Source: Candidatus Krumholzibacteriia bacterium
GTDB taxonomy: Bacteria; Krumholzibacteriota; Krumholzibacteriia; JAJRXK01
Reading direction: 5' to 3'
NCBI GenBank assembly: GCA_041484665.1
Contig: JBGPIA010000032.1
Location: 1-19,152 of the forward strand
DNA: 19,152 nucleotides
Program-made: the position numbers and the translations under genes
Shown here: in pieces, positions 2,516-19,152 of the stretch
Position numbering within the stretch: the stretch's first letter is position 1
How the letters are laid out: each line of letters begins with the position of its first letter
Notes under the pieces: generated by a model
Seen by the model: only the letters and a program-made list of their open reading frames with translations
Told to the model about the DNA's origin: nothing
Databases searched by the model: none

Positions 2516-2550
2516 GCATTCGCGACGCCGAGGCGACCGAAAGGGTCAGC

Positions 2551-2889: not shown

Positions 2890-2912
2890 CGCGTCCGTCG
2901 AGGAGTGCTTCC

Positions 2913-3014
2913 ATGAGGTTCCTGTTCATGCTCGCACAGGTAGAAGAAGCCTGGGCCGCGCGCATGCCCAAGTACGGACACGGGTCGATCGAGGTGCGTC
3001 CGATCTGGGATTGA
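2913..3014 (+). pseudogene. YciI-family gene with in-frame internal deletion (33 aa)
   Basis: AGGAG RBS; MRFLFMLAQVEEAWAARMPKYGHGSIEVRPIWD*. A YciI-like N-terminus is joined directly to the conserved C-terminal WAARxP...GSIEVRPI motif. Confidence 0.7.
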
Positions 3015-3048: not shown

Positions 3049-3163
3049 GACGTCCCCAAACGGTCGCGGCGGCCGCGACGACACCGTGACCTGACCGCGG
3101 TCGTGATCTACACTCAGGCGCTGAAATCGCAGCGGCCGCAGCGTCAGGAACCCCGCGGAGGAC
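3049..3163 (+). pseudogene. intI: Eroded C-terminal remnant of an integron integrase
   Basis: From 3082: HRDLTAVVIYTQAL, one extra A at 3124, then NRSGRSVRNPAED. Compare the IntI C-terminal consensus HxDVSTTMIYTHVLNRGGxGVRSPxD. Confidence 0.6.
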
Positions 3164-3218
3164 CAGCGGGAGCCGTGAGAGGCTGGTGGAGGTTGCGCCC
3201 GGGGGATGACTGTGCGCG

Positions 3219-3390
3219 ATAGACTGCGGCGCGGCGCTCGGTATCCGGGAGGGGTGGGCCGGACAAACCGACGGAAGGCCGTGCGGGAATGACCTATGAG
3301 CGGCTGAACGCGATCGGTCGCCGGCGTGATGGACGGCGAGTTTCAAGCCCGCTCATTGGAGATAGATTCGCTGTCTACTGCTCGTTGGGC
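3219..3390 (+). repeat. attI-like module, copy 1
   Basis: Begins ATAGACTGCG and ends GAGATAGATTCGCTGTCTACTGCTC-GTTGGGC. Aligns along its length with 10036-10200 and at both ends with 18731-18902. Confidence 0.75.
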
Positions 3391-3399
3391 CGCAGTTGA

Positions 3400-3424
3400 C
3401 TGCCGCTCATGTCGGACGTTAGGC
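3400..3424 (+). other. Right half of an attC site (remnant of a deleted cassette)
   Basis: GCCGCTCATGTCGGAC-GTTAGGC is a canonical-looking L'-spacer-R' end; no left half lies upstream. Confidence 0.55.
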
Positions 3425-3430
3425 GGCAAT

Positions 3431-3577
3431 GTGGGAAAGACCCGGGTCATCCTCTTTTTCTTCATCGCAGTGGCCCACTTCGTGGCGAGTGTCGCCGCCG
3501 CCACTTACACATTTAGTAGTGCCATGAAGGGAGCGACGCCGACAGGGCCATCCAATGGCTACAGCCGAAACGCCTAA
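3431..3577 (+). CDS. Small hydrophobic cassette ORF (48 aa), possibly truncated
   Basis: VGKTRVILFFFIAVAHFVASVAAATYTF...; lies between GTTAGGC (3418) and the exactly complementary GCCTAAC (3572), which contains its TAA stop. Confidence 0.45.
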   Translation: MGKTRVILFFFIAVAHFVASVAAATYTFSSAMKGATPTGPSNGYSRNA

Positions 3578-3632
3578 CCACTCGAGCGGTCTGTTCGTTC
3601 ACACGAGCGGGCGGGCCGCTCCGGTGTCCGGC
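3572..3632 (+). other. Degenerate attC site
   Basis: GCCTAAC CACTCGAGCGG...CCGCTC CGGT GTCCGGC. R'' is canonical, GAGCGG/CCGCTC form inverted arms, and R' is degenerate. Confidence 0.55.
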
Positions 3633-3657
3633 CACCCAGCCCCGGCAGGGGGCTTCC

Positions 3658-3737
3658 ATGAGGTTCCTGTTCATCCTGACACAGGTGGAAGAAGCCTGGG
3701 CCCGCGCTGCGCCGGGTGAGGGTGATCGCGTCGGCGT
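3658..3737 (+). pseudogene. Second YciI-like 5' fragment, truncated at the 3' end of the SNF2 gene
   Basis: GCTTCCATGAGGTTCCTGTTCAT...CACAGGT.GAAGAAGCCTGGGCC is nearly identical to 2907-2957. It encodes MRFLFILTQVEEAWARAAPGEGDRV, then runs antisense into the helicase. Confidence 0.6.
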
Positions 3738-6700
3738 TCAGGCTCTGCGAACCCGGGTGCTCTCCTGCGTGCCTCGCAGAAGTCCGGCCAGCCCTTCGAA
3801 GAGTGCCACCAGCGTCGCCGCAGCTTCGGCATTCGCCTCAATGCGCAGACCCCCTTGCGATGTCGGACGGATCTCGAGCTGCGTGAACAGTCGCCGAACG
3901 TCGGCAGCCGACACAGCGCGCGCCGCGGCTTCGGCGATAGCCGCTGCCCCATCCACGCGCGATCCGTCCGCCGCCGCTCCTGGATCCTCTTGGATGGGAC
4001 CCGAGGCGGCGATCGGGTCCGCGGTCGCGGGGGCCGCCACGACACGTTTGGCTGCGCCAACCAGCCCTTCCGCCGGCAAAATCTCATCAGCCCCGCGCGA
4101 CTCGTCCGCCGCGGCCACGAGCGCCTCGATCTCCCGCTCCACCGCGGCGTCCACCACCGATTCCGACTCGGCGGCGAGTTCCTCCGCGGCGGCGGCGGCG
4201 CGACGGCCAGCAGCGCCGTCGCCATGGCCAGCCGCAACGCGCCGCTCAACCGCTCGCTCGCGTGCCACGCGTTGAGTCGCAGCGGCTGCCTGCCCAACAG
4301 CGCCGCCACCAGCGCCGTCTCCGGCGCCATCCGTCGCACCCGGCCCCGCCTCCACCAGCCTCCCGACGTTGGCCAAGAACGACCCCGAGCGCTCGAAGCG
4401 GATCTCGTCGCTGCGCCCGTCGAAGAGGCCCGTGAACAATGCGCGCTTGTCGCCGACGAGGGCCGCGATGCGCGACTCGATGCAGTCCTGCGCCACCAGG
4501 TTGTAGACATCGATCGGACGTTTCTGGCCCATCCGGAAGATGCGGCCGATACGCTGCTCGAGCACGGCGGGGTTCCATGGCAGCTCGATGTTGACGCAGC
4601 AGCTCGCGGCGCGCTGCAGATTCAGCCCCACGCCGCCGGCGTCGGTTGCAAAAAGCACGCGCACGCGAGGATCGTCGTGGAACTCGACGATATTCCTGGT
4701 GCGCTGCCGCTGGTTCTCGCGGCCGGTGAAGAACGCGGCCCGCAGTCCCCCCTCCGCCAGCACATCGCCCACCGCCCAGTGCGCGAGAGCAAGCATACGG
4801 CGCCACTGGCTGAATACGACCACCTTGCGCTGCTGCTGGATGGCGACCTGGGCGATGATCTCCCGCAGCTCCGAGAGCTTGGGGCTGTGCAAGCTCTGCA
4901 AGAGCTGCGGCTCGGGGCGTGGCGCAGCACTGATCTGCGGCCAAATCTGAGCGAAGCGGATCTGCCCCAGACCGTTGGCGATCATCCGCTGGGTGGTGAG
5001 GAGCGTCATCAGCCTCAGGAACTGGGCCTGCGTGAGCGGCCGCTTGCGTGCGATGGCCGCGAGCTGGGCGATGGGCTGGTTGAGCGCGTCGTGCTCGTCG
5101 CGCTGCTCGCTCGTCAGATCGACGGGGATGACGCTGTCCGTCCGTGGCGGGAGCTGCGTGAGGATCTCGCGCCGCACGCGGCGGAGCATGCAGGGCGCCA
5201 GGCGCACCCGCAGCGTGTCGAGATTGCGGGCGCCAGCTGTTTCGGATGCGCCGTCCGACCACATGGAGTGCCACGGCACCAGTCGCCACTTGGGCTCGAG
5301 CGCGTGGTCGTCGACCCATTCGACGATGGAGGCCAGCTCCTCGAGGCGATTCTCCATGGGCGTCCCGGTGAGGACGAGCCGGTACGCCGGCTGGAGCTGC
5401 TTGACGCAGCCGGCCGTGCGCGTCGCCCAGTTCTTGATGCGTTGCGCCTCATCAAGCACGATGAGATCGGGCGCCCAGGCCTGCATCGCCGGCAGGTCGC
5501 GCAGCACCTGCTCGTAATTGACCAAGAGGAACCCAAGCCGGCGGCGCCGGTAGAACGCGTGCCGTTGCTGCGGGCCGCCGTCGACGACATCGATCGGCGC
5601 GTCGGAGAAGAGCCTCCACTCGCGCTGCCACTGCGATTTCAGGCTCGCGGGCACGATCAACAGCCCTCGCCGCACCCTGCCTGCGTGCCACAGGACGTGA
5701 CACGCCGCGGTGGCCTGCACGGTTTTGCCGAGCCCCATGTCGTCGGCCAGCAGCAGGCGCCCGGTGTCGAGGAAACGGCGGACTCCCTCCTGCTGGTACG
5801 GGTAGAGCGGCCGGCGGAGTGAGCGCAGCGACCGCTCCAGACGCTTGCGTTCGGCGCGGTCGGCGGTGATTCGCGCGAGATGCTTGCGCTCGGCGGCGAG
5901 CAAAGCGTGCAAGGCCGGCTCTGCGGTGAGCCGGGCGCGGCCTCCTTTCGCACGCTGTCGACGGGTCCCACCGTGCCGGGGAGGCTCGCTAGCGCGCAGC
6001 AGATCCTCGATCATGGCAGTCCGCGCTTGCGGGCGATCCTCGCCGGGAGCCTCCGCCTGCAGGTCTCCGTTCGTTCCACCGCGGAACCAGCGCCGCGCCC
6101 GGGCCAGATCGGCGTGCCTAACGGCGTGCTGCGGGTCGAATCCGTGCCACCACACCCGGCCGAGCCAGTCGCCGCGCCCCGTCAGCGGTCGCACAGGATC
6201 CCAGGTAAGCTCCGGGCCGTCGGCCGTCGTTGGTGCGGCGAGAGCCCGCTGCCAGCGTCGCGGCCTCGCGGCGAGATCATCGAGCACGACGAGCAGATGC
6301 TTGCACAGTCCCAGCGAGCTACGCAGGTAGTCGGGGCAATCGCAACTGCCGCGCAGCGGGCTGAGGGACTGAAGCGATGTGGAGTAGGGCCGCTGCGATC
6401 CGCGTACCCGCCGCGTCGAGTAGGCCCCGAAGGGCGCCTGCCGGGTGGGTCGCGCTGCGATGCGCAGCCGGTCGCGTAGCGCGAACGCGCAGCGGCGCAG
6501 CAGCGCCTCCATCGCGGCCCGACGGACCGGCCAGTCCGCTTGGGCCGTAAGCGTGAGGACATGCTGAACGAGCAGCAGCGGGGGGATGCGCAGGGTGGCG
6601 CCAAACGCCAGGTGTTGGAGCGCGGCCACCGCTTCGCTACGGTCGGCGGGCTCGCCGTTGGCGTGTGTCGCGGCAGGCGCGGGCGTGGCTCGCGCCGCGA

Positions 6701-6818
6701 CGGGCCGCGGGCGGCGAGCGGATGGGCCAGCCTGCCGGCCAGCGGAACCCTTGATGATGACGGAAGGCGGTGCGGATCCCACCGAAGAGCGGTACCGCCG
6801 GGGAATCGTGGAGGCCAT
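3738..6818 (-). CDS. SWIM zinc-finger SNF2-family helicase/ATPase
   Basis: SWIM motif CDCPDYLRSSLGLCKH; Q-motif LYPYQ; Walker A LADDMGLGKT; DEAQ; LTGTP; GGVGLNLQ; PWNP...QRIGR; Ala/Glu-rich tail. The start is uncertain (ATG 6818 chosen; the frame is open to 6932). Confidence 0.92.
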   Translation of the reverse strand: MASTIPRRYRSSVGSAPPSVIIKGSAGRQAGPSARRPRPVAARATPAPAATHANGEPADRSEAVAALQHLAFGATLRIPPLLLVQHVLTLTAQADWPVRRAAMEALLRRCAFALRDRLRIAARPTRQAPFGAYSTRRVRGSQRPYSTSLQSLSPLRGSCDCPDYLRSSLGLCKHLLVVLDDLAARPRRWQRALAAPTTADGPELTWDPVRPLTGRGDWLGRVWWHGFDPQHAVRHADLARARRWFRGGTNGDLQAEAPGEDRPQARTAMIEDLLRASEPPRHGGTRRQRAKGGRARLTAEPALHALLAAERKHLARITADRAERKRLERSLRSLRRPLYPYQQEGVRRFLDTGRLLLADDMGLGKTVQATAACHVLWHAGRVRRGLLIVPASLKSQWQREWRLFSDAPIDVVDGGPQQRHAFYRRRRLGFLLVNYEQVLRDLPAMQAWAPDLIVLDEAQRIKNWATRTAGCVKQLQPAYRLVLTGTPMENRLEELASIVEWVDDHALEPKWRLVPWHSMWSDGASETAGARNLDTLRVRLAPCMLRRVRREILTQLPPRTDSVIPVDLTSEQRDEHDALNQPIAQLAAIARKRPLTQAQFLRLMTLLTTQRMIANGLGQIRFAQIWPQISAAPRPEPQLLQSLHSPKLSELREIIAQVAIQQQRKVVVFSQWRRMLALAHWAVGDVLAEGGLRAAFFTGRENQRQRTRNIVEFHDDPRVRVLFATDAGGVGLNLQRAASCCVNIELPWNPAVLEQRIGRIFRMGQKRPIDVYNLVAQDCIESRIAALVGDKRALFTGLFDGRSDEIRFERSGSFLANVGRLVEAGPGATDGAGDGAGGGAVGQAAAATQRVARERAVERRVAAGHGDGAAGRRAAAAAEELAAESESVVDAAVEREIEALVAAADESRGADEILPAEGLVGAAKRVVAAPATADPIAASGPIQEDPGAAADGSRVDGAAAIAEAAARAVSAADVRRLFTQLEIRPTSQGGLRIEANAEAAATLVALFEGLAGLLRGTQESTRVRRA

Positions 6819-7086
6819 GCTGGGCAGGCTAACGTGCAGCAGCCTGAAGGACAAGGGGGTAGCGCTTCCACCCGACCTCGCGCCGGGTGTGACGTGGTAG
6901 GCAGTGGAAACCAGGGTCTCGGCCCAAGTCACCAGCCCTTGACCCTACCAGCCGGCGCGGGCCCCGAAAGAGCCCTTCCCCCAGCCCAAGATCGGCGGGG
7001 CGGCTCCGGCCGCAGAGTGCGTCCTTCGGTGGCCGGTCTCGACGTAGCATGGAATCTCGGCGATCATGCTTTCGTGATTCTCGTTC

Positions 7087-7212
7087 GTGATTCTCGGCTT
7101 CCGCAACATGGGCACCCAGGATAGCTTCAATGGTCGCTCGACCACGGCGGCACGAAAGACCTGTCCGACGGCCCTGTGGAGCGTGGCCGCGCGGAAGCTG
7201 GAGTACCACTAG
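7087..7212 (+). pseudogene. higB: HigB (RelE/ParE-family) toxin with internal deletion (41 aa)
   Basis: Manual translation VILGFRNMGTQDSFNGRSTTAARKTCPTALWSVAARKLEYH*. A HigB-type N-terminus (..F....T...F.G...A.RKL) is fused to the terminal YH*; the PPGNRLE...YSIRIN.Q.RI core is absent. It sits directly upstream of higA. Confidence 0.8.
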
Positions 7213-7221
7213 GTGTGTGCG

Positions 7222-7539
7222 ATGATTCGAGTCCCAACCCACTGCGAGCCCATCCACACCGGCGGAATGCTGCTGCGGGAGTTCTTGGAGCCCAGGGGGA
7301 TCACGCAGCGGGACCTCGCGGACGGCATTGGCGTGCCCTACCAGCGCGTGAACGAGCTCGTGAACGGTCGGCGTGGCGTGACCCCGAGCACCGCGCTGCG
7401 GCTTGCCAAGTACCTGGGGACCTCCGCGGAGCTATGGCTGGATCTTCAGCAGCGGTGGAATCTCTACCACGCGCAGCGAGTGGAGGCGGCGGCGCTGGGA
7501 CGAATCCGGCGCGTGACGCGGCCCAAGCGAGCCGCCTGA
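7222..7539 (+). CDS. higA: HigA-family antitoxin (XRE HTH)
   Basis: MIRVPTHCEPIHTGGMLLREFLEPRGITQRDLA...RVNELVNGRRGVTPSTALRLAKYLGTSAELWLDLQ. The usual HPGE motif reads HTGG here. Confidence 0.9.
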   Translation: MIRVPTHCEPIHTGGMLLREFLEPRGITQRDLADGIGVPYQRVNELVNGRRGVTPSTALRLAKYLGTSAELWLDLQQRWNLYHAQRVEAAALGRIRRVTRPKRAA

Positions 7540-7657
7540 TTCGCGTTGGAACCACACGAGCGCCAGTGCTCTCGGTCCTGGAGGCGGGCACCGCCCAAGT
7601 CCGGTTCGATGCGGCCGCGCACCGGCAGGTCTGCCAGCCGCCCAGCCTGGAGGTCCG

Positions 7658-9898
7658 ATGCCCCGCAAACCCGCCGCCCCCCGTTCGCCGCGCGCAGGCA
7701 CGACGTCTGGTGGGCGCAACCGCGACCGTGACACGCTCAAAGGTAAGGTCCGCCCCCACGATTCTTTCGAGCTGATCCGCTGGCTCGCCTACAGCCAGCC
7801 CGATCCACGCAAGGCGCTGGCCGAGCTGGTCCAGAACAGCCTCGACGCGCAAGCCGCCCACGTGCGGGTGACGCGCGTCCGCCTGAAGAGCGTCCCCTGC
7901 CTGCGCATCCACGATGACGGTGACGGCGTCATCCCCGAGCTGCCGCGTCCCGAGGCGCTCAAGTACATCGCCACGCACATCGGCCACAGCCGCAAACGGC
8001 ACCTGTCCCCCCAGGAGCGGCTGGAGCTCATGACGCAGGGCCAGTACGGCATCGGCCTGCTGGGCTTCTGGAGCCTGGGCGCGCAGCTTGACATCCGCTC
8101 GGCCGTACCCGGGCAGCGTCCCTACCGGCTGCTCTTGCACCGCGACAGCTCGCGCTACGAGATCGAGCCCTTGCGCGGCCATTTGGGACTCGACGAGCGC
8201 TCGACCGAAGTCGTCGTGTCGGGGCTGAGGCGCGAGGCGCTGGCGGTGCTGGCGGCCGGACGCGCCGCCGACTACCTCGCCGCCGAGCTGCGCGGGCAGC
8301 TCCTGGCGCGCGAGGTCGAGCTTGTGATCGAGGACAAGATCGCGCGCGGCCGCGCGCAGAAGCTGATCCGCGTGCGCCCGCCGCGCTTTCTGGGCGAGCG
8401 CGTCGACTCGCTCACGGCCGTCGCCGTGCCCGGCCACCCTCCCATCCGTCTGGAAATCTACGTCGCCCCAGAGCGCGGCGACGGCGGCGAGCCCCACGCG
8501 CTCGCGGTGTACTGCACGGGGACGCTGGTGGCCGACGACTTCCATGCGCTGGCGGCGCTGGGACTGGACCACTCACCCTGGACCGACACGCGACTGGTCG
8601 GGATGGTCGACTGGCCCGCCTTCAAGGTGGCCCCGGGGAGCAGGCGCGGCGTACTGGCCGACGACGCGGCGGGCGCGTTCTCCCGCGCGCTGCTGACGGC
8701 GGAGCCCGCGCTGCAGGCCGTGCTCGAGACGCTCGAACGCCGGCGCGAGGAGGAGGCGGACCGCCACCTCGTGCGTGACCTCCAGCGGGCCTTCCGCGGG
8801 CTGTACCGGCAACGCCCGCGCTACGCGATGCTCCCGGTGGAATCCCCGGGCGACCGCGGCGCGGCCGCGGCGGGCGACGGCGCGGCGGGTGGCGCGGAAG
8901 GAACGGCGGCGGGCACGGATGCGCCGGCTGGTCCAGACATCACCAGTCCCGAGACGGCAGCGGCCGCTGAGGATGTCGCGACCGGCGACGTGGATGCCGC
9001 GGCCGCGGCCGGCCCGGACGCGCTGGAGAGCGTTGAGGCGGCCGACTCCGCGCAAGGCCAGCTCCTCCCGCCCGGTCCGCTGCACAGCGTACGCATCGCG
9101 CCCGCACGGCTGCGCGTCGAGCGCGGCGGCACGCGGCGCGCGCGGGCCGAGGCGCTGGATGCCTCCGGCCGCGCCATCGAGGAGCCGATTGCGCACGAGT
9201 GGCGGTTGGTGTGCGCAGCGAATGGGCGCGGCGGTGCTGACGAAGCCGATGAAATCGAGCCACTTGGCCGGCTGGAGCCGGTCGAAGGCCGGCCCGACGT
9301 CGTGCTGTTGCATGCTGGAGATATTGCGCGCGACGGCGAGCTACAAGTTGTCGTGCGCAGCGGTGGGCTCGAAGCGTTCGCTGCCATTCCCGTAGAGGTC
9401 GTCGACGAGCTGCATGCGGGCCGCTCGGACGAGGGCATCCCCAAGCCGCAGTTCATCTACGACCCGGGCGCGAGCTGGCGATCGCGGATGGTCGACGCGC
9501 GATGGCAGGTGAACTCGGGGCACCACGAATTCCGTGGGATCGCCGACCGCCCCGCCCTCAAGCTGCGCTACCTCGCCCTGCTCTTCGCCAAGGAGGTCGT
9601 GCTGCGCAGCTACCAGGACCCGCGGTTGGAGAAGCCGCTGGAGCAGCTCGTGGAGGTCATGGCGTTCGCGGACCGCAATCTCGCCGGAAAGGGGGCCAGG
9701 AGCGCGAAGGGAGCCGGAGCCGACAAGGGCGCGCGCGGCCTCCGTAATCCGCGAAGGGTCGCCCCGTCGGCGGAGGCAGGCGCCACGGAGCCCGCCGCAG
9801 AACTCGCCGCGCATCCCGCTGCGGAACCCGCCGCCGATCCCGACACAGAACCCGCAAGGGACCGCGAGGAACGCCACGCTGACGATGCAGCGGGGTGA
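7658..9898 (+). CDS. GHKL (MORC/Hsp90-like) ATPase with low-complexity linker and probable Ig-like domain
   Basis: ALAELVQNSLDA (N-box), IHDDGDGV (G1), GQYGIGL (G2), ERSTEV (T-box); Ala/Asp-rich linker; VRIAPARLRVERGGTRRARAEALDASGRAI (Big_2-like); C-terminal QVNSGH motif. Confidence 0.85.
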   Translation: MPRKPAAPRSPRAGTTSGGRNRDRDTLKGKVRPHDSFELIRWLAYSQPDPRKALAELVQNSLDAQAAHVRVTRVRLKSVPCLRIHDDGDGVIPELPRPEALKYIATHIGHSRKRHLSPQERLELMTQGQYGIGLLGFWSLGAQLDIRSAVPGQRPYRLLLHRDSSRYEIEPLRGHLGLDERSTEVVVSGLRREALAVLAAGRAADYLAAELRGQLLAREVELVIEDKIARGRAQKLIRVRPPRFLGERVDSLTAVAVPGHPPIRLEIYVAPERGDGGEPHALAVYCTGTLVADDFHALAALGLDHSPWTDTRLVGMVDWPAFKVAPGSRRGVLADDAAGAFSRALLTAEPALQAVLETLERRREEEADRHLVRDLQRAFRGLYRQRPRYAMLPVESPGDRGAAAAGDGAAGGAEGTAAGTDAPAGPDITSPETAAAAEDVATGDVDAAAAAGPDALESVEAADSAQGQLLPPGPLHSVRIAPARLRVERGGTRRARAEALDASGRAIEEPIAHEWRLVCAANGRGGADEADEIEPLGRLEPVEGRPDVVLLHAGDIARDGELQVVVRSGGLEAFAAIPVEVVDELHAGRSDEGIPKPQFIYDPGASWRSRMVDARWQVNSGHHEFRGIADRPALKLRYLALLFAKEVVLRSYQDPRLEKPLEQLVEVMAFADRNLAGKGARSAKGAGADKGARGLRNPRRVAPSAEAGATEPAAELAAHPAAEPAADPDTEPARDREERHADDAAG

Positions 9899-10035
9899 CG
9901 CAGGAACGATCATCGAGTTCGTGGATGCTCTCACGGCGGTTGACGCGCCCTGGCTGCACCTGGCCCAAGCGACCTCATCGCGATCGAGCTTCCGACGGCG
10001 CCCCTACATCGGCGTCCGCCAGGCACCGGCGCGGC

Positions 10036-10200
10036 GCGGCGCGGCGCTGGGCATCCGGTGGAGAGTGACCTGGTCAAACCGGCGGAGGTCCGTGCGGCAA
10101 TGACCCACGAGCGGCTCAACGCGATTGGTCGTCGGCGTGATGAACGGCGAGTTTCCGCCCACTCAATGGAGATAGATTCGCAGTCTACTGCTTGTTACCT
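10036..10200 (+). repeat. attI-like module, copy 2
   Basis: Collinear with 3226-3390 (e.g. GAGCGGCT.AACGCGAT.GGTCG.CGGCGTGATG.ACGGCGAGTTTC); ends GAGATAGATTCGCAGTCTACTGCTT-GTTACCT. Confidence 0.78.
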
Positions 10201-10221
10201 GACCTGGAGAGGAGAATCGGT

Positions 10222-10458
10222 ATGGCGATATGGCAGCGAATCGTCGGCCAGATTCTGGTGGCCGTTGGTGCGGTTCTGGCCGCGGGCGGGGTCCTGAGTT
10301 TTTTCTGGACGAATGTCGAGTTGAAGTTCTTCAAGACACCGGTTGCCTCTCCGCAGGCACGAATAACGTGGGTCATCGTCACGTTGGCTGTGGCACTCCT
10401 CGGTCTCTGGCTTGTACGCCGCTCGAGGGCGGCACGGGACCGGCCAACGGTCAGCTGA
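10222..10458 (+). CDS. Small two-TM membrane protein (gene cassette)
   Basis: GAGGAG RBS; two hydrophobic segments; the stop lies inside the downstream attC R''. Confidence 0.75.
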   Translation: MAIWQRIVGQILVAVGAVLAAGGVLSFFWTNVELKFFKTPVASPQARITWVIVTLAVALLGLWLVRRSRAARDRPTVS

Positions 10459-10513
10459 CAAGCGCATGCAGCGAACGGCGCTACGCGCCGCCCCTGATGC
10501 GCAGACGTTCGGC
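10453..10513 (+). other. attC site
   Basis: AGCTGAC AAGCGCATGCAGCGAACGGCGC TAC GCGCCGCCCCTGATGCGC AGAC GTTCGGC, 61 bp, with GCGCAT(G)CAG/CTGATGCGC arms and an extra-helical base. Confidence 0.85.
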
Positions 10514-10535
10514 CACCGACTCAACGAGGTGGATC

Positions 10536-10937
10536 ATGGCCATCAAGATTGAAGGAACCTGCACCCTGCTCGAGGTCTTCGACATGCCGACGTCGGTTGC
10601 GTTCTACCGCGACGTGCTGGCTTTCGAGGTCGTCAAGGCATCGCAGCCTGGAGACGATTTCGATTGGGGGCTGCTCCGGCTCAACGACACGGAGTTGATG
10701 CTCAACACACTGTACGAGAAACACGACCGGCCGCCGGCCCCGGCTCCCGCCCGCGTCGCCGGCCGCGGCGACACCTCGCTCTTCTTCAGTTGTCGGGACT
10801 TGGACGCGGCTTACGCGCACCTCCGCGCGCACGGCATTGACGTGAAGTCCCCGGTCGTTCGTGACTACGGCATGAAGCAGCTGTCGCTCGACGATCCGGA
10901 CGGCGACAATGTCTGCTTTCAGTGGCCAGCGGTTTGA
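10536..10937 (+). CDS. VOC (glyoxalase/bleomycin-resistance) family protein
   Basis: GAGGT RBS; LEVFDMPTSVAFYRDVLAF...DLDAAYAHL...YGMKQLSLDDPDGDNVCFQ. Confidence 0.9.
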   Translation: MAIKIEGTCTLLEVFDMPTSVAFYRDVLAFEVVKASQPGDDFDWGLLRLNDTELMLNTLYEKHDRPPAPAPARVAGRGDTSLFFSCRDLDAAYAHLRAHGIDVKSPVVRDYGMKQLSLDDPDGDNVCFQWPAV

Positions 10938-11030
10938 CAAGGCGCTGCAGCTGGGGACCCACGCGCGGCGCGACGGCGACCCTCGAAGTTCGTCCCGCGT
11001 GGCTCGCAGCTGAACGCCAGGCCGTCAAAG
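10932..11030 (+). other. attC site with non-canonical GAC/GTC cores
   Basis: GTTTGAC AAGGCGCTGCAGCTG...CCACGCG...CGCGTGG...CGCAGCTGAACGCC AGGCC GTCAAAG, a 99-bp imperfect palindrome. Confidence 0.78.
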
Positions 11031-11087
11031 CGGCGCTTGACGTCGCCAGACTGGACGCTCGCCCGTGAGGGCGGGAGGAGGGAACTG

Positions 11088-11339
11088 ATGAGGTTTTCCG
11101 ATCCCACAAAGCGCGAGGCCCGTTGGCGACAACACAGCAGATGTGCGGTGCGTGGCGGGAGCCTCGATTGGCAGGAGGAGTTCGCCCACCATGTCGATCC
11201 TGATGCGCTGGGTGGACCGGATCGCGTGGACAACTGTGTGATCCTGTGCCGGCCCGGCCACGACCGAGTGCACTACGATGGTCGGTTTCGCACCGGCATC
11301 GTCGCACCGCGAAGCTATTTTCGCTACTTGATCGGGTGA
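11088..11339 (+). CDS. Small HNH endonuclease, probably degenerate
   Basis: GGAGGAGG RBS; RCAVRG...AHHVDPDALGGPDRVDNCVILCRPGHDRVH has the HNH pattern, but the second Cys of both expected CxxC pairs is substituted. Confidence 0.7.
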   Translation: MRFSDPTKREARWRQHSRCAVRGGSLDWQEEFAHHVDPDALGGPDRVDNCVILCRPGHDRVHYDGRFRTGIVAPRSYFRYLIG

Positions 11340-11429
11340 TCCTCGGGTCATCCGACGGTACGCGCGTGCTGCCCATGGATCGCGCTCATTGCGCCGATTG
11401 CGTCGGTCGCGACCGTCACGTCGGGCCGA

Positions 11430-12896
11430 TCAGCCCCGCCGCTTGGCCACCGCCTCTGCGAGCCGCTTGCCGTACTCCGCGTCCGCCTTGCGGAAGTGCT
11501 CGATCGAGCGGGCGACGACGTCTTGGAGGCTCACCTGCGCAAGGCCTCCGGCGATGTTGTCGATGAGGCGCTTGCGCGCGTCTTCCCTCATCACGCGGTA
11601 GAGCGCGCCGGCCTGGACAAAGTCGTCGTCCTCGCGATGCTTCACGAGCCCGTGCGGTCCCACAGCGCCCGAGACGTCGTAGCCCAGGTCGTAGGCAGCG
11701 CCGGTCTGGGCGGGACCGTCGTAGCTGTTGGGCTCGTGGTTCTTGGTGCGCCCGCCGTTGTCGTCGAAGCGCATGGCGCCGTCACGGCCGTAGTTCTGGG
11801 CGCCGCCCTCGACTGCACGCGGTGCGTTCACCGGCAGCCGCGTGTGGTTGACGCCGAGCCGGTAGCGGTGTGCGTCGCCGTACGCGAAGAGCCGCGCTTG
11901 CAGCATCGGGTCGGGGGAGGGGCCGATGCCGGGCACGAAGTTCGACGGATCGAACGCTGCCTGCTCCACCTCGGCGAAGTAGTTGTCCGGCACCCGGTCG
12001 AGCACCATTCTACCGATCGGGATGAGCGGGTAGTCCTTGTACGGCCAAACCTTCGTCAGGTCGAAGGGATTGAAGCGGTAACTAGCCGCCGCTTTCTCCG
12101 GCATCGCCTGCACCTTGAGCGTCCACGACGGGAACTCACGGCGGGCGATCGCGTCGTAGAGATCCTTGTGGATCGCGGAGGGGTCCGCACCACCGATGCG
12201 CTCCGCCTCCTCGCTGGTGAGGCACTTGATCCCCTGGTCCGTCTTGAAGTGGAACTTGACCCAGACGCGCTCGCCCTTGGCGTTGACCCACTGGAACGTG
12301 TGCGATCCGAACCCGTCCATCTGGCGGTAGCTGGCCGGGATCCCGCGGTCGCCGAACAGCCAGGTGAACTGGTGCGTGGCCTCGGGCGAGTGCGAGAAGA
12401 AGTCCCAGATGTTGTCGGGCTCCTGGCGGTTGGTGAAGGGGTCGTACTTCTGCGAGTGGATGAAGTCTGGGAACTTGATGCCGTCGCGTATGAAGAAGAT
12501 CGGCGTGTTGTTGCCGACCAGGTCCCAGTTACCGTCCTCGGTGTAGACCTTGATCGCGAAGCCGCGCGGGTCGCGCGCCGTGTCCGCCCCGCCGCGTGAA
12601 GCCGCCACCGTCGAGAACCGGACGAAGAGCGGCGTGCGCTTGCCCGCCTGCGCGAAGACCTTCATCTTCGTCCAGCGCGCCACGTCCGGGCTCGTGACCT
12701 CCAGGTAGCCGTAGGCACCGCTGCCGACGGCGTGGACGATACGCTCGGGAATCCGCTCGCGGTTGAAGCGCGCGAGCTTCTCGATCAGGTGGTGGTCCTG
12801 CAGCAACGTCGGGCCGCCCGCGCCTGCTCTCTGGGAGTGCTGATTGTCGCTCACCGGGGCCCCGGCCTCGGTCGTGAGCTTCCGTCGCTTCGCCAT
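11430..12896 (-). CDS. katA: Monofunctional heme catalase (small subunit)
   Basis: FNRERIPERIVHAVGSGAYG (distal His), DLVGNNTPIFFIRD, RLFAYGDAHRYR (proximal Tyr); GGAAAGG RBS. An alternative ATG lies at 12902. Confidence 0.96.
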   Translation of the reverse strand: MAKRRKLTTEAGAPVSDNQHSQRAGAGGPTLLQDHHLIEKLARFNRERIPERIVHAVGSGAYGYLEVTSPDVARWTKMKVFAQAGKRTPLFVRFSTVAASRGGADTARDPRGFAIKVYTEDGNWDLVGNNTPIFFIRDGIKFPDFIHSQKYDPFTNRQEPDNIWDFFSHSPEATHQFTWLFGDRGIPASYRQMDGFGSHTFQWVNAKGERVWVKFHFKTDQGIKCLTSEEAERIGGADPSAIHKDLYDAIARREFPSWTLKVQAMPEKAAASYRFNPFDLTKVWPYKDYPLIPIGRMVLDRVPDNYFAEVEQAAFDPSNFVPGIGPSPDPMLQARLFAYGDAHRYRLGVNHTRLPVNAPRAVEGGAQNYGRDGAMRFDDNGGRTKNHEPNSYDGPAQTGAAYDLGYDVSGAVGPHGLVKHREDDDFVQAGALYRVMREDARKRLIDNIAGGLAQVSLQDVVARSIEHFRKADAEYGKRLAEAVAKRRG

Positions 12897-13026
12897 GGTC
12901 ATCTGCCTTTCCGGGGGCGGCGCCCCGCGTTCCGCTACCTTGCGGGATTCCTCGGTTGTCCGACTGCTCACGCGTACAGTGTGTGCTGGGGGGGGCTGAT
13001 TGCTCCAAGACATTCTATGGATGGAT

Positions 13027-13047
13027 GTGATAGTTTAGGTCTATCAC
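13027..13047. promoter_or_regulatory. OxyR-type operator (ATAG-N7-CTAT)
   Basis: GTGATAG-TTTAGGT-CTATCAC is a perfect 7-bp palindrome between divergent katA and oxyR. Confidence 0.8.
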
Positions 13048-13065
13048 GAACCTCGGCCCACATCC

Positions 13066-14028
13066 ATGAATCTCGGCCCACATCCCTTTACGCTGCGGCA
13101 GCTCCAGTACGCGGTCGCGGTGGCGGAGTCGCTCAACTTCCGCAAGGCCGCGCAGCGGTGCCACGTCTCCCAGCCAGCACTCAGCACCCAGATCGCGGAG
13201 CTCGAGCGCGTCCTGAGCGTGACGCTCTTCGAGCGCGACCGCAGGCGCGTCCTGGTGACCGCGGTCGGGCGGGGGCTCGTCGAACGAGCGCGGGTTGTCC
13301 TGCGCGAAACGGACGATCTGGCCGAGTCAGCGCGGCAGTCGGGCGATCCGCTCGCCGGAACGCTGCGCATCGGCGTCATCCCGACCATCTCCCCCTATCT
13401 GTTGCCACACATCACGCCGGCGATCCGCGCGGCGCATCCCCACCTCACGCTGCTGTGGGTGGAGGACAAGACGGGCACGCTGGCGCGCAGGGTCGACGCC
13501 GGCACGCTGGATGCGGCGCTGCTCGCGCTCGAGGCGGATCTCGGCGACGTGGAACACGAGGCGATCGCGCGGGACCCGTTCGTCCTGGTGGGCGCAGCGG
13601 GAGAGCCACTCGTGACCCGAGCCGTTTTGGCCAAGCCGTCCGAGCTTCGCGACGTGAGCGTCCTGCTGCTGGATGACGAGCATTGCTTCGGCAAGCAAGC
13701 GTTCGACTTCTGCTCGAACGCAAAGGCGCGCGAGCTGGAGTTCAGGGCCACGAGCCTCTCCACGATCGCGCAGATGGTGGCGGGCGGCGCCGGCGTTACC
13801 TTGCTGCCGGAGCTGTCGGTGGCGACCGAAGTCCGGGGGACGCAGCTGCGCGTGCGCCGGTTCGGCGATCCCGCCCCGGGCCGCACGATCGCGCTGGTGT
13901 GGCGCAAGCGGTTCCCTCTGGCGCCTGCATTGCAGCAGCTGGCGGCCACTATGCGCGCCGCGTACCCTGGCCAGCGGCGGCCGAAGGCGAGCCCGTCGGC
14001 GCGAAAGCGGAGAGCAGGGCGGCGATGA
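13066..14028 (+). CDS. oxyR: OxyR-like LysR regulator
   Basis: LysR HTH (TLRQLQY...VSQPALSTQI); LLLDDEHCF...FC redox cysteine pair 9 residues apart; ATSLSTI.QMVA.G.G.TLLP; divergent from catalase. Confidence 0.9.
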   Translation: MNLGPHPFTLRQLQYAVAVAESLNFRKAAQRCHVSQPALSTQIAELERVLSVTLFERDRRRVLVTAVGRGLVERARVVLRETDDLAESARQSGDPLAGTLRIGVIPTISPYLLPHITPAIRAAHPHLTLLWVEDKTGTLARRVDAGTLDAALLALEADLGDVEHEAIARDPFVLVGAAGEPLVTRAVLAKPSELRDVSVLLLDDEHCFGKQAFDFCSNAKARELEFRATSLSTIAQMVAGGAGVTLLPELSVATEVRGTQLRVRRFGDPAPGRTIALVWRKRFPLAPALQQLAATMRAAYPGQRRPKASPSARKRRAGRR

Positions 14029-14315
14029 TCTATGTATTGTGGGGCCTCGGCATACTCGCTGGCCTCTACTGCCTCCACCGGGCCGCGCTGTGGGCCGAGC
14101 GACGTGGCTGGATCTACTACCGCAAGGCGGGCAGTAGCGGGGCCATCGGGAACGCGTTTCTGGAGATCCAAGCGACCTTCGACCCAGCGGCTCGCCACGT
14201 TCAGGAAGAACGAGAGAGAGCTCACTCGCAAACGCAGGAGTCCGGAGACCCGCCCGTGCCTGGGCCACAATCCACGACGCCGGAGGACCCCACTCAGCGG
14301 CAAACTCGGGGTTGA
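14025..14315 (+). CDS. Small membrane-anchored hypothetical protein (96 aa)
   Basis: ATGA overlap with the oxyR stop; N-terminal TM helix, then LWAERRGWIYYR...GDPP. Confidence 0.7.
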   Translation: MIYVLWGLGILAGLYCLHRAALWAERRGWIYYRKAGSSGAIGNAFLEIQATFDPAARHVQEERERAHSQTQESGDPPVPGPQSTTPEDPTQRQTRG

Positions 14316-14360
14316 GGGCGGCCTCGCTGCCGACGCATCGGTTGGCCGACTCTGCCACCT

Positions 14361-14476
14361 GCCTACAGTGGCTGAGCGCGGCCGGCCTCGCCGAGAGAGA
14401 GGTGCACGACGAGCAGTTGGGCTACCATCTGCACCCCCCCGAGGCGAGTTGGGCCGAGTGAGCCTCGGGGTCTGGC
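14361..14476 (+). other. Eroded attC-like palindrome
   Basis: GCCTAC...GGCTGAGCGCGGCC...CTCGCC...GGTGCA / TGCACC...GGCGAG...GGCCGAGTGAGCC...GTCTGGC form nested inverted arms; both cores are non-canonical. Confidence 0.4.
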
Positions 14477-14526
14477 AGCACGCGACACAGTGGAACTCTT
14501 CCCCGATCCCCCACGGTGATACCAGG

Positions 14527-14991
14527 ATGGCGAACGGCGAGAAGATCCACCCCGGATCCGCGGAAAGGACAGTGCCTCTGCGGGTGACGCTCCGGGAGCC
14601 TCCAGCGGGCGTGACATGGGCCCTCCAGATCGGACGCGATGAGCTCGCGCCTCCCGCCAAGACGACGCGCAAGAGTATTATTTTCGATGTCGTCGTTCGG
14701 GTCGCGGGGACCGTCTCGGGCGGAGCGCCGCAGTGTCTGGGCCCTGCCGTCCCGGGGCCGCCGACGTCTCGCTTCCTGTACCTGAACTCCGGTCTGCGGG
14801 CGGGCCAGGTGAGCTCCGGCTGGGACCGTCGGGCCAAGGTGCCGCTCGTCGGCATCAGCTGGGCCCTCATCGAGGCCGTGGCTGCCAAGCGCGGAGCCGT
14901 GCTCGTCGCGGAGGTGGCCGGCACGGCGCGGGATGGCGGGCCGGCGTGCGCTTCCGTGCCGCTTCTCGGGAGTGGCTGGCGGATCGCCTGA
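14527..14991 (+). CDS. DUF5990-like protein
   Basis: LRVTLREPPAGV.WALQ.G...GPPTSRFLYLNSG..AGQ..S.WDRRAKVPL...GTARDGGPACASV; family recalled from motif. Confidence 0.7.
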   Translation: MANGEKIHPGSAERTVPLRVTLREPPAGVTWALQIGRDELAPPAKTTRKSIIFDVVVRVAGTVSGGAPQCLGPAVPGPPTSRFLYLNSGLRAGQVSSGWDRRAKVPLVGISWALIEAVAAKRGAVLVAEVAGTARDGGPACASVPLLGSGWRIA

Positions 14992-15043
14992 AGCGCCGCC
15001 CGGTGCGCCCGCGGTCAAGAGCACCTATGCAGGAGGAAACACG

Positions 15044-15607
15044 GTGGCCAGCAGGCAAGTCGCACTGATCCGCGGCATCAACGTCGGGCGCGCCAAGCGA
15101 ATCGCGATGGCGGATCTGCGAGCCCTCGTCGAGAAACTGGGCTACGGCGACGTGCGCACACTTCTCAACAGCGGCAACGTGGTTTTTACCGTCTCTGCCG
15201 CCACGGGCCGCAGCGATGGGGCCCCGGGCAAGTCCGGCGCCCGTATCGAGGAAGCGATCCGCACGAAGCTTGGCGTTTCAGCTCGGGTCACGGTGCTCAG
15301 CGCGGCAGAGCTCGCGGTTGCCGTGGCCGAGAACCCGCTGCTGGAAGTGGCCGACAACCCGTCTCGCCTGATGGTCGCGTTCCTCGCCGACCCGGCCGAT
15401 CGGCAACGATTGAAGCCGCTGTCGGGAAAGGACTGGCACCCCGAGGTTCTGGCCATCGGCAAGCGGGTGGCCTATTTGTGGTGCCCGAACGGGATGCTCG
15501 AGAGCCCGCTGTCCGAGGCCGTTGGCCGGCTGCTGGGCGCTGCCGTGACCACCCGCAACTGGGCGACCGTGACGAAGCTGCACGCGCTCGCTGGGGAGAA
15601 GCCGTGA
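15044..15607 (+). CDS. DUF1697 family protein
   Basis: AGGAGG RBS; VALIRGINVG...MADLR...V.TLLNSGNVVF...TTRNWATV. Confidence 0.88.
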   Translation: MASRQVALIRGINVGRAKRIAMADLRALVEKLGYGDVRTLLNSGNVVFTVSAATGRSDGAPGKSGARIEEAIRTKLGVSARVTVLSAAELAVAVAENPLLEVADNPSRLMVAFLADPADRQRLKPLSGKDWHPEVLAIGKRVAYLWCPNGMLESPLSEAVGRLLGAAVTTRNWATVTKLHALAGEKP

Positions 15608-15914
15608 TCGCGCAGCTGCTCCAGTCCAATCGCTGCGGTACGTGGCAGACCCACTTTTCGCCCCCCGACTTTCATACCAAGGTTCGCAGAAACGTCAGAG
15701 CCGGCGGCCCGCGCGGCTGCGCGACCCGGCCACGCAACTCAGCACTCCCGGTCTCGGGAGGGCTGCCTCCCCAGACTACGGCATGGACACGCCTTGGCCT
15801 CTTGAGACCTCGGGGATAGACTCCAGCCGCCGATCGCTCGAGCAAGATTGGATTCGTGGGCCGCCATTCGTCGGGTGTCGGGCCAGGCACGCGATGCGAG
15901 GGGAACGATTCGTT

Positions 15915-17669
15915 ATGTGGAGGCTCAGCAGCGTCTTGGTGTTCTGTGTTGTCCTGACTGGCTGCGTTCTTTCGAACGATGCGGTGGTCCCGGAATCCGC
16001 AGCGACGTTCGACGCCCGCCTGTTGGGTGGGTGGGAAGAGGTCGGCGGATCGGATCGCGCCGTCGTTTCGAGCGCCAGAACGAATGCCTATGCGATCGAG
16101 TACACCGATTCCGACGGTCAGGTGGGTCGGTTCGAAGCGCGCCTCGGGCGTCTCGGCACGCGCCTCGTCCTCGACGTCCTGCCTGCCCCGCGACAGGCCG
16201 GCTCCTCGCCTCCGGAAGCCGGCGCGTTGATCCGGGGGCATGTCCTGTTCGATCTGCAGGTCGGTGCCGACACCGCTCGGGTAGCCCTGCTGGAGCAGGG
16301 TGCGCTTGTGGCGGTGCTTGCCGGCGGCGCTTCGCACTTGGCGCACGTCACCAGCGGCGATCAGCTGATCCTCACCGATGCGACGGATCGGCTGCGCGTC
16401 GGCCTGGCGCGTTACCTGGATCGGGCGGGGCCGTTCGGGTCGCCGAGCGTCTGGCACCGGACGGGCGGACCGGAGCCCGCTGCCCCTGGCCCAGACAAGA
16501 GCGCGCGGCATACGGCCGCGGCCGCGCTCCCCGGCGCGCCCACCGCACCACGCGCCACCCCCAACGCATCGCGCACGGCGCCGCCCGCCTCACCTACCGC
16601 CTCGTCGACGGCCTCGCCCACCGCGGCCGCGCAACAGGGGCAGGACCCGTGCTTCGAGTCAGCCCCGTGGCGCGAAGCCGATCTCTTGTTCCGTCGCGAC
16701 CCGCACTGGGTTGGATCGGACGGTGCGTACTCGATCGACCTCGGGCACGAGCGCATCCTCTGGCTCTTCGGAGACACCAGGATCGATCCGTCGGGCCGGC
16801 ACACCCGGTGCGGAGCGCGCATGGTCCGCAACACCGTGGCGATCCAGAAGGGCGCGGATCCATCGCGAGCGGAAATGACGTTCTACTGGGGCGAGACGCG
16901 TGGCGGCGAACCCGGGCCGCTGTTCGCCGACCAGGGGGACGATTGGTTCTGGCCCGGGAACGGCATCCGACTCGAGAATTGCCTCGTCCTGTTCCTCATG
17001 CGTACCCGGGGCAGCTCCGGTGGGCTCGGCTTCGAATCAGCCGGGTGGAATGCCGTGCTGGTGAGCAATCCAGACGCGGAGCCGTCCCAATGGAAGGTCA
17101 AGTGGCTGGACACGCCGCGCAATGCGCTCGGCGTCGTCGTTGGATCGGCTGGCGTCGTGCGATGGGGCGATCAGGTGTACGCCTTCGGATCGCAGGAGCC
17201 GGTGAAGTCGCATCCGATGTACGTCGTGCGCTGGCCGGTGGCAGCGCTGCGGCGAGGCGACCTGCGCGCTCCGGAGTGGTGGGCGGGCGCCGACGCGGGA
17301 TGGGTCCCGGACTCATCCCAGGTCGCGCGTTGGCCGGCGTTCGAGAACGGCCAGTCCGAGCTCACCGTCCACTTCGATGAGCCCACGCGCCGATTCGTGG
17401 TTGTCCAGTCCGTCGGCTTCGGTGCGGCGGACGTGGCGGTCCGCTTTGCGCCCGAGCTGACCGGCCCGTGGACGCAGCCGCGCACGGTCCATCGGCCCGC
17501 GGAGTTCTACCGGCCCAAGATCATGATCTACGCCGCCAAGGCGCACCCGGAGCTCTCGGGCGCCGACCTGGTGCTGACCTATGCCACCAACACGTTTGAA
17601 TTCGCGGAGCAGATGACGGACAGCACCAGTTATTATCCGCGGTTCGTGCGGCTGACACGGTGTCCGTAG
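15915..17669 (+). CDS. Lipoprotein: unknown N-terminal domain, Pro/Ala/Thr/Ser linker and DUF4185/DUF5005-like beta-propeller
   Basis: Signal peptide with lipobox LTGC; linker TAPRATPNASRTAPPASPTASSTASPTAAA; GSDGAYSIDLG..RILWLFGDT, GPWT and YAAKAHPEL...Y.PRF motifs. Confidence 0.72.
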   Translation: MWRLSSVLVFCVVLTGCVLSNDAVVPESAATFDARLLGGWEEVGGSDRAVVSSARTNAYAIEYTDSDGQVGRFEARLGRLGTRLVLDVLPAPRQAGSSPPEAGALIRGHVLFDLQVGADTARVALLEQGALVAVLAGGASHLAHVTSGDQLILTDATDRLRVGLARYLDRAGPFGSPSVWHRTGGPEPAAPGPDKSARHTAAAALPGAPTAPRATPNASRTAPPASPTASSTASPTAAAQQGQDPCFESAPWREADLLFRRDPHWVGSDGAYSIDLGHERILWLFGDTRIDPSGRHTRCGARMVRNTVAIQKGADPSRAEMTFYWGETRGGEPGPLFADQGDDWFWPGNGIRLENCLVLFLMRTRGSSGGLGFESAGWNAVLVSNPDAEPSQWKVKWLDTPRNALGVVVGSAGVVRWGDQVYAFGSQEPVKSHPMYVVRWPVAALRRGDLRAPEWWAGADAGWVPDSSQVARWPAFENGQSELTVHFDEPTRRFVVVQSVGFGAADVAVRFAPELTGPWTQPRTVHRPAEFYRPKIMIYAAKAHPELSGADLVLTYATNTFEFAEQMTDSTSYYPRFVRLTRCP

Positions 17670-17724
17670 AGTTCGAGGCATGCGTTGCGACGGGGTTGCG
17701 GACATCGCGCGTGGAGCATGAGAC

Positions 17725-17867
17725 GCTGGCGCGGCCAGCGGGGATGGAGCGGATGCGAGAGGGTATCGAAGAGGGTGGGTCGACAGCGGGTGCCGTCGTG
17801 GTCGGATCGTAGAAGGTCCGGGCGGATCGTTCACGAAACGCCCGCGTCCTTGCGTTGGCCGCGCAGC
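17725..17867 (+). other. Eroded long attC-like palindrome
   Basis: Arms GCTG(G)CGCGGCCAGCGGGGATG and CGTCCTTGCGTTGGCCGCGCAGC(TGAGCGCG), with one unpaired base in the left arm as in attC L''; core sites are not recognisable. Confidence 0.35.
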
Positions 17868-18169
17868 TGAGCGCGGGTGACGGCGCATCCATGTGGATCG
17901 AGGGTGAGGTTGTCCGGGGCGAGGCGTAGATCACAACATTATGATGTGCTGTGTGCGGCGAGCCTTCCGTCGGCAGGGTCAACACCCCGTGTCGTCGGGT
18001 GTGCGATCGCTCTTCCGGCGATGCTGAGGCCCTTGTCGCCTCCACAGCCAAGTTGTAGGCTTGTCTCCGTCGTTGTTGGGCTGCCAGAAAGACCGAACTT
18101 GGGCGCACTGCAGGCCCCTGTTGCAAGTATGCGCGGCGCGTGGTGTGGGACCCCGCGGCGGTTTGGCAT

Positions 18170-18647
18170 GTGTGCGCGCGGAGGCGCGGGGCCGCCGGTG
18201 GGTCTGAAGGCGCCGTTCGCGGCTCGCCTGGGGCGGGTGCGGGCGCAGCACCGGCGCTACCTGGGGGCAGGGCGCGGAAGCGTCGAGCTGCCCTCTGCGC
18301 TGACCAAGAAGCACCCGCTCGCCGCGTGGGCCTGGGCGTGGCAACGGTTGTTCCCCGCGACCCGCTTCTACCTGGATCCTCCGTTGGACCAGTACCACCG
18401 CCACCATTTTCACGCGTCCGTGCTGCAGCGGGTCGTCAAAGAAGCTGCCCGGACGGCGGGCCCGTCGAAACCAGCGAGCTGCCACACCCTGTGGAACGCC
18501 TTCGCCACCCACCTCCTTGAGTGCGGATAGGACATTCCCACCGTTCAAGAGCTGCTCGGACACGCGGGCGTGAGCACGACCCTGATCTGCACCCACGTCC
18601 TGAATCGGGGTGTGCGCAGCCCGCTCGATGAAGGTGTGCGGCTATGA
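18170..18647 (+). pseudogene. intI: Integron integrase pseudogene (C-terminal half)
   Basis: GSVELPSALTKKHP..AWAWAWQRLFP...RHHFH..VLQR (integron-specific insertion), then [49 protein letters not shown]. There is an in-frame TAG at 18528; HxxR reads HxxW and the catalytic Tyr reads Cys; the N-terminal half is missing. The start of homology is approximate. Confidence 0.92.
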
Positions 18648-18716
18648 TGGGCGCCGTGCGAGCGTCGAGCGCGGTCCGAGGGACGGCGCGAGCGTGCCGA
18701 TGAAGCGGGGGCAGGG

Positions 18717-18902
18717 ATAGACTGCGGAGGATAGACCGCGGCTCGGTGCGGGGTATCTGGGGCGGGCGGCTTGCGTCGGCGCGATGGAAGAGGCAGCCGG
18801 GATCGAGGATGCGGGTCGCTCGGGCGTGTGGGAGCGGCGGGATAGACGGACGGATAGCGCGCGATCAAGGGAAATAGATTCGCAGTCTACTACTTGTTCG
18901 GC
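18717..18902 (+). repeat. attI-like module, copy 3
   Basis: ATAGACTGCGG (18717), ATAGACCGCGG (18731) ... GAAATAGATTCGCAGTCTACTACTT-GTTCGGC; directly downstream of the intI pseudogene. Confidence 0.75.
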
Positions 18903-18956
18903 GGGCTCGGAGAGCGTGAACATCGAGGCGATCTTCTTCCAATAGGAGATATCAAA

Positions 18957-19152
18957 ATGAACGCAAGTGATCTTATTGATGATCTAATCGCAACACTTAC
19001 TGATTGGCGCAGCGTGACTTTTACCAACATCCGCAAAATTGTCCGTGATGCTGATCCAGAGATAGTCGAGGAATGGAAATGGATGGGTACCCCAGTCTGG
19101 TCTCACGATGGAATAGTCTGTGTCGCAAATGCCTTCAAAGATAAGGTTAAGC
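18957..19152 (+). CDS. DUF1801 (YdhG-like) protein, partial; AT-rich cassette gene
   Basis: AGGAG RBS; MNASDLIDDLIATLTDWRSVTFTNIRKIVRDADPEIVEEWKWMGTPVWSHDGIVCVANAFKDKVK; runs off the right edge. Confidence 0.88.
   Translation, partial: MNASDLIDDLIATLTDWRSVTFTNIRKIVRDADPEIVEEWKWMGTPVWSHDGIVCVANAFKDKVK

Follow-up and report, generated by a model that had tools for sequence, protein, structure and literature searches.

Probable stacked attI platforms of reverse integrons, with integrase genes in cis broken or gone, on an accessory island of a Candidatus Krumholzibacteriia bacterium

Introduction

Reverse integrons are already known (10.1101/427781; PMC4909258; PMC9668308), as are frequent pseudogenes of the integrase gene intI and genomes with multiple intI genes (PMC2426708), and groups of clustered attC that have no integron integrase (CALINs) and are usable in trans (PMC4889954; for Xanthomonas, 10.1101/2025.06.18.660453). 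Sites derived from attI inside the arrays of class 1 and 2 integrons recombine, an attI1-ORF-attI1 unit (ORF, open reading frame) being excised at 100% (PMC12901181), and most integrons have no defined attI for which IntegronFinder could search (PMC4889954). Here we analyse a stretch of 19,152 nucleotides (hereafter the window), which is the whole of contig JBGPIA010000032.1 (C32) in the 5.4-Mb, 54-contig genome GCA_041484665.1 of a Candidatus Krumholzibacteriia bacterium. We think it quite probable that three copies of a short motif in the window are stacked attI sites of reverse integrons on an accessory island, their in-cis intI broken or gone and the third copy probably loaded in trans.

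The window agrees with known reverse integrons in the co-orientation of intI with the array, the position of attI 3' of intI and the G|TT crossover. It differs in carrying several stacked, diverged attI regions (here called platforms), none with an intact intI in cis, and in belonging to another phylum. CALINs likewise are arrays without an intact intI that are open to use in trans (PMC4889954; 10.1101/2025.06.18.660453), whereas the arrays of the window keep a recognisable attI and therefore could gain as well as give cassettes. Class 1 and 2 integrons have ΔattI-type and attI-ORF-attI cassettes, which also place attI sequence within the array (PMC12901181). Here, in contrast, the chromosome retains entire platforms that have diverged, and some of them come with intI tails and kilobases of cargo. 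A literature search, with most subscription papers outside it, found nothing on stacked diverged whole attI platforms and nothing on integrons or attI-headed CALINs of this phylum. Within that literature it is the stacking of whole platforms that appears new, reverse integrons, CALINs and ΔattI cassettes being known already. Stacked platforms bear on the origin and status of CALINs.

Results and Discussion

An earlier note on this DNA had reported the motif three times, with GTT at 3384, 10194 and 18896. Our search of the window reproduced this, a 17-mer lying at 3362, 10172 and 18874, always on the plus strand, and three matches were reached in none of 200 shuffles. Copies 1 and 2, which the note had aligned over about 165 bp with the likeness ending after GTT, are 84% identical across 162 nucleotides up to GTT, and the alignment shows that the copies share nothing past it. 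Pairwise comparison outside the core gave 51-82% likeness among the window copies. The whole genome holds four motif copies, and allowing one or two mismatches added no further one; the fourth lies on contig C34, about 230 nucleotides 3' of an intact, co-oriented intI. A fifth variant of the window attI (window 18857-18902) was seen in four runs (X3-X6) and is absent from the assembled genome. An Rfam search gave no match. The contig comes from a metagenome bin and the core is a weak palindrome (TAGA-N7-TCTA), which might point to mis-assembly or to a regulator-binding palindrome unrelated to integrons. However, an 11,282-nucleotide contig of run X3 covers 514-11795 with zero differences and contigs of runs X1 (which may be the source run of the genome), X2 and X3 bridge copy 3, so that the layout is not an assembly error, and all six exact core-plus-GTT matches known to us, described next, sit at integron heads; we consider this explanation extremely improbable.

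Among 208 genomes of the phylum, the exact core followed by GTT occurs only in the source genome (four) and in G002 of the same family (two), while one further genome has a one-mismatch match without GTT. One G002 copy follows an intact intI (contig C19) and the other a gene that by reading of its sequence is ppk2-like, and both head attC arrays. The search of the genome and its relatives that the earlier note had proposed thus returned few copies, at integron heads. The motif with an array is also found in a record labelled Candidatus Krumholzibacteriota. Across GTDB, a 16-mer matched 75 stretches, with a correctly spaced GTT in one and an intI-level match within 4 kb in none, and the remaining matches therefore look like chance; a stricter 24-nucleotide pattern had zero matches in metagenome or viral contigs.

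Full-score intI was found in 66 of 151 genomes of the class. Strict attC around intI in the class numbered 64 downstream on the same strand, two on the opposite strand and none upstream (199 kb and 77 kb), counts to which partly overlapping loci and non-independent kin contribute. In this class the reverse layout is the norm, and both here and in the window intI and cassettes share a strand, with the array 3' of intI.

Insertion at attI leaves a mark, in that the R'' box belonging to the first attC is complementary to the seven bases from the crossover. In 11 platforms of relatives, the match between the crossover 7-mer and the first R'' was 7/7 in five, 6/7 in three, 5/7 in two and 3/7 in one, and the complementarity extends to unusual core variants. 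In three integrons (L103, L113 and L166) the apparent crossover is GAT in place of GTT, and after it comes one short GC-rich repeat that the three have in common. The first cassette of copy 3 also occurs in runs X3 and X5, preceded in each by another attC-type right arm and with the joint exactly at 18896, and the final 15 bases of the X5 arm are those of an attC in G006, a genome of the same family. Conservation ends at G|TT, where the cassette core site begins, and several of the sites adjoin intI: copies 1 and 3 follow remnants, and the copies on C34 and on C19 of G002 follow intact genes. In 11 of 13 platform pairs the core (-25 to -6) has changed less than its flank, which fits continued selection. 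The claim of the earlier note that the window repeats are attI sites of reverse integrons is thereby backed by the copy next to an intact intI, the strand bias of attC, the joint at 18896 and the R'' complementarity, and we regard it as very probably correct.

Platform 1 spans 3218..3390 (core 3362-3383, crossover G3384|T), platform 2 10036..10200 (crossover G10194|T) and platform 3 18730..18902 (core 18874-18895, crossover G18896|T), all on the plus strand. In all six aligned copies GTCTAC stands at -11, followed by a variable 5-bp spacer and with TAGRTTCGC just upstream, giving an inverted core-like L box 5 bp before R in which the L assignment is by analogy. A GATA-N20-TATC inverted repeat lies exactly at -166 in copies 1, 3 and C34 and has been lost from copy 2, which is also without intI. 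The exact repeat recurs in 7 of 59 other regions downstream of intI (other spacer lengths, 0-3), at -54 in the three placeable cases. By analogy with attI1, GTCTAC and the distal repeat are putative IntI-binding L and accessory sites. The attI1 of class 1 integrons likewise has a 7-bp L box before a GTTRRRY R box and more core-like 7-mers upstream (PMC12901181; PMC3146285), but it extends over 65 bp, whereas the geometry in the window is conserved to -166, and no likeness in sequence is claimed.

The state of intI, searched for in the window with a profile built from 52 intact genes, differs from platform to platform. Ahead of copy 1 there is a frameshifted 3' tail of about 30 codons and some 80 bp (3082..3178, plus strand; nhmmer match 3082-3160, E 0.002 in a window-only search), with 7 of 30 conserved columns changed. 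Ahead of copy 3, the 3' half of a pseudogene remains (18194..18647, plus strand; profile match 18194-18632, E 4e-81), with an internal stop and the catalytic Tyr replaced. It is nearest to the C34 gene (74%) and has 10 of 117 conserved columns changed (8.5%), as against a mean of 0.87 and a maximum of 7 in the 52 intact genes. The profile search of the window found no intI at copy 2. The co-oriented remnants reported in the earlier note are thus confirmed; their stops lie 205 and 248 nucleotides ahead of the crossover G at copies 1 and 3, where the note had given about 220-250 bp. No platform of the window thus forms a complete integron, the in-cis intI being broken or absent at all three, and intact intI genes lie elsewhere in the genome, on C34 and C53. 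Two further candidates, a decayed 5' half of intI before 18194 and a remnant of the gene ahead of copy 2, scored inside the shuffle range and found no support. The intI of C53 (L002, 1-210) has another platform type, with GATA-N20-TATC, on a contig that stops just before the expected crossover.

For attC we used a covariance model of our own (R1), made from 27 attC of relatives and distinct from IntegronFinder, in place of a loose heuristic that was too noisy and a fixed-length matrix that missed most window sites. In the window it found three degenerate attC, at 10453-10513 (E 4.5e-4, core/R'' match 5/7), 10932-11030 (E 1e-3, 3/7) and 1883-1960 (plus strand, E 0.027), all with GAC for AAC in R''; other matches had E of at least 0.69. 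Copy 1 is followed, at 3391..3578 on the plus strand, by the right arm of an attC (core site 3418) and a 48-codon cassette that by its sequence keeps only the R'' of its attC (3572-3578), with a core matching the R'' complement at 7/7, which the model missed. Copy 2 is followed by two cassettes, encoding a small membrane protein and a glyoxalase (10194..11030, plus strand), whose two attC with no intact intI nearby make this run a CALIN under our model. Behind copy 3, a first cassette encoding a DUF1801 protein (18896..19152, plus strand) is cut by the contig end. There is thus cassette DNA after each copy, as the earlier note had said, though little of it: about 837 + 195 + 257 of 15,684 bases (some 1.3 of 15.7 kb).

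Non-cassette cargo fills the spaces between. The first block (3738..9898) encodes a SNF2 helicase (minus), a HigA antitoxin (plus) and a HATPase_c_3 protein (plus). The second (11088..17669), in which no attC was found, encodes HNH, catalase (minus), OxyR-like LysR (plus), DUF5990, DUF1697 and DUF4185 proteins, the catalase and regulator forming katA-oxyR cargo. Of the 208 phylum genomes, 7 carry the HATPase and 35 the catalase, and both are missing from nine genomes of the same family; the window is an accessory island carrying three platforms. We reject a connection of the HATPase gene with integrons, as 64 homologue loci (415 kb) hold no intI and no attC. Short ORFs separated by attC throughout, as expected of a single long array, are not what the window contains. 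The earlier note had inferred several entry points in one 16-kb array, which we take to mean an unbroken run of cassettes entered at three working sites. The three copies are indeed co-oriented with GTT kept, and a cassette-rich array with internal platforms exists in G006, but about 92% of the span is non-cassette DNA, with large genes on both strands that lack attC. With these spacers being cargo and no intact intI in cis, that version is not supported, and we judge it very improbable.

The three platforms seem to differ in state. The older ones would be copies 1 and 2, which are probably frozen, their attC having lost AAC. The cassette of copy 3 has 47% GC in a contig of 68% GC, and 3 of its 257 bases differ from an attC-linked copy in run X5; the five variable coding positions checked in it are first or second codon positions. 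A test of whether the cassette is younger than the death of the adjoining intI gave P 3e-7 under neutral drift and P 0.19 with only third positions free. We lean towards copy 3 being a working platform that would be loaded in trans by an intact IntI from elsewhere in the genome, and hold this with modest confidence because the test is weak if only third positions are free.

Stacked platforms are also found in relatives. In G006, which belongs to another genus and has a different attI sequence, seven co-oriented platform copies with about 30 attC among them span some 62 kb, their identity to the lead copy (72-82%) dropping with distance. One copy has an intI tail, a second intI tail stands without a platform, and two copies are without GTT; the two intI tails have the same rearranged upstream sequence. 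The start of the second platform coincides exactly with the core site of attC number ten among those detected, and this platform hence, with an att core site upstream and attI sequence downstream, has the structure of a ΔattI-type cassette. Unlike attI-ORF-attI cassettes (PMC12901181), this copy lacks an ORF. It resembles the ORF-less promoter cassettes of oral Treponema in being a non-coding unit of an array that may drive downstream genes (10.1101/427781), but those end in attC and the G006 unit in attI, and its promoter activity is putative. The region (contig C2, about 35-97 kb; L129 1316-1543, L239, L240 and L247) is a cleaner case than the window, with the first cassette present three times.

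Platforms without intI occur in G002, G054 and G158 (two each) and in G012 and G009 (one each), and head attC arrays in G002, G012, G054 and G158. Several directly follow an unrelated gene or tRNA-like sequence, and five of the eight have a downstream attC match with a 6/7 or 7/7 first-cassette complement. Just before one of them (G002 contig C48, L134 at about 1040-1060), a canonical core site lies about 20 nucleotides past the stop of the upstream gene, possibly the insertion junction of that platform.

These arrangements could arise as follows. In the reverse layout the platform of about 170 bp would lie wholly outside intI, and because the two do not overlap, the gene could erode without loss of the site, a process of which the window displays three stages; the platform would stay useful and selection would keep its core after intI is lost. 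An intact IntI in trans, that of C34 and possibly that of C53, would serve the remaining sites. Occasionally, IntI would use a secondary site to excise a platform-bearing block, which may or may not bring along an intI tail and flanking cargo, and would insert it at attI or attC of a resident integron. The junction in G006 and the published recombination of attI-ended cassettes (PMC12901181) lead us to favour such capture, tentatively, as the way in which stacks are built; the junctions of the window itself are too eroded to decide the route. The differing 5-bp spacers may hold back attI x attI deletion and so help the copies to persist, given that an identical attI1 pair was excised at 100% (PMC12901181).

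Of the duplication or capture that the earlier note had proposed, multiplication of the platform stands, here and independently in relatives, while recent duplication is unlikely because the copies are so diverged outside the core. One integron might instead have undergone tandem segmental duplication long ago, its copies then diverging and suffering deletions, with no part for IntI in moving the platform. This would agree with the YCII-like gene fragments on both sides of platform 1 (2907-2963 and 3652-3707, 91% alike over 57 nucleotides), with the 84% likeness of copies 1 and 2 and with the shared upstream rearrangement of the two G006 intI tails. Yet no other gene of the window is duplicated, copy 3 is nearer to the C34 platform (62-70%; 70% for the platform 3 comparison with the intact C34 platform) than to copies 1 and 2 (48-54%), and duplication would not be expected to set the start of a platform precisely on an attC core site. 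We consider this route improbable. No joint between window copies was found among the joints listed.

A number of observations weigh against the stacked, partly trans-served sites that we favour. The earlier note had taken invariant sequence after GTT as a sign against attI function, and in all four runs compared the bases that follow copies 1 and 2 are indeed identical. Behind copy 3, no different cassette was found in the runs, among the joints listed and in contigs, from which rare variants are lost. The test of cassette age is strong solely under neutral drift of the cassette. The conservation of the core could date from before the loss of intI (P 0.29 at copy 3, P 0.024 at copy 1), and no sigma-70 consensus promoter (Pc) was found in the three platform regions. 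The attC model found no attC 5' of any window platform, and capture junctions are therefore not visible there; only one of the orphan platforms inspected begins at an attC. The youngest platform comes last in the window and first in G006. G129, G065 and G080, each searched with the platform that it carries, have a single copy. Of 13 long loci, 12 showed no second platform within the 5-13 kb examined.

Some of these points would suit a graveyard, in which three complete reverse integrons arrived separately with their cargo at a hotspot and died, all attI now being inert. The cargo is accessory DNA missing from the nine same-family genomes, an IS1380-family transposase (5' part, 1..486, minus strand, cut by the contig end) stands at the left end, the copies are merely 51-82% alike outside the core, and about one third of intI genes are pseudogenes, with several in about one fifth of lineages (PMC2426708); the invariant sequence after copies 1 and 2 agrees as well. 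Such an origin does not fit the near-unchanged AT-rich cassette at copy 3 beside a well-decayed intI, the conservation of core over flank in 11 of 13 pairs or the attC-abutting platform of G006, and we hold it to be unlikely.

Going beyond the stacked sites that we prefer, and more tentatively than for capture, the attI platform of reverse integrons might itself be mobile, carried by IntI like a cassette both into arrays and to fresh places on the chromosome and so seeding many integrase-free entry points, all served in trans by one IntI. If this were true, many CALINs would be working satellite integrons and not debris. The lineage offers a natural series: two genomes hold between them seven copies of one attI type that can be aligned, cognate integrases are present intact, and some copies stand at the head of arrays without an integrase. 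This makes the definition of a reverse-integron attI, the gain of cassettes by integrase-free arrays and the mobility of platforms testable. The window is a partly decayed example, with cleaner cases in relatives.

Several features of the window and its relatives remain to be described. A decayed cassette-type run lies 5' of platform 1 (608..3014, plus strand), with Pfam matches to GNAT, CAAX protease, DinB and YjbR and to a short YCII-like fragment (weak, E 0.17); the degenerate attC at 1883-1960 falls within this run. R'' reads TGAC and not TAAC at 1883, 10453 and 10932 of the window and at 5768 of C34, and as this TGAC doubles as the stop codon of the cassette gene at 10453 and 10932, a TAA-to-TGA change in R'' may lock cassettes in a GC-rich host. 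A 41-codon ORF ahead of higA (7087-7539) gave no family match and, by reading of its sequence, resembles an internally deleted higB. The SNF2 helicase and the MORC-like HATPase_c_3 protein at 3738-9898 are a possible defence pairing, a SNF2 gene neighbouring 3 of the 64 HATPase homologues. Small gene pairs resembling toxin-antitoxin systems lie between intI and attI in several of the class's reverse integrons, namely L105, L121, L126, L138, L141, L143, L156, L162 and L163, HigA being recognised by similarity in L143, L156 and L163 and the other pairs by reading of the sequence.

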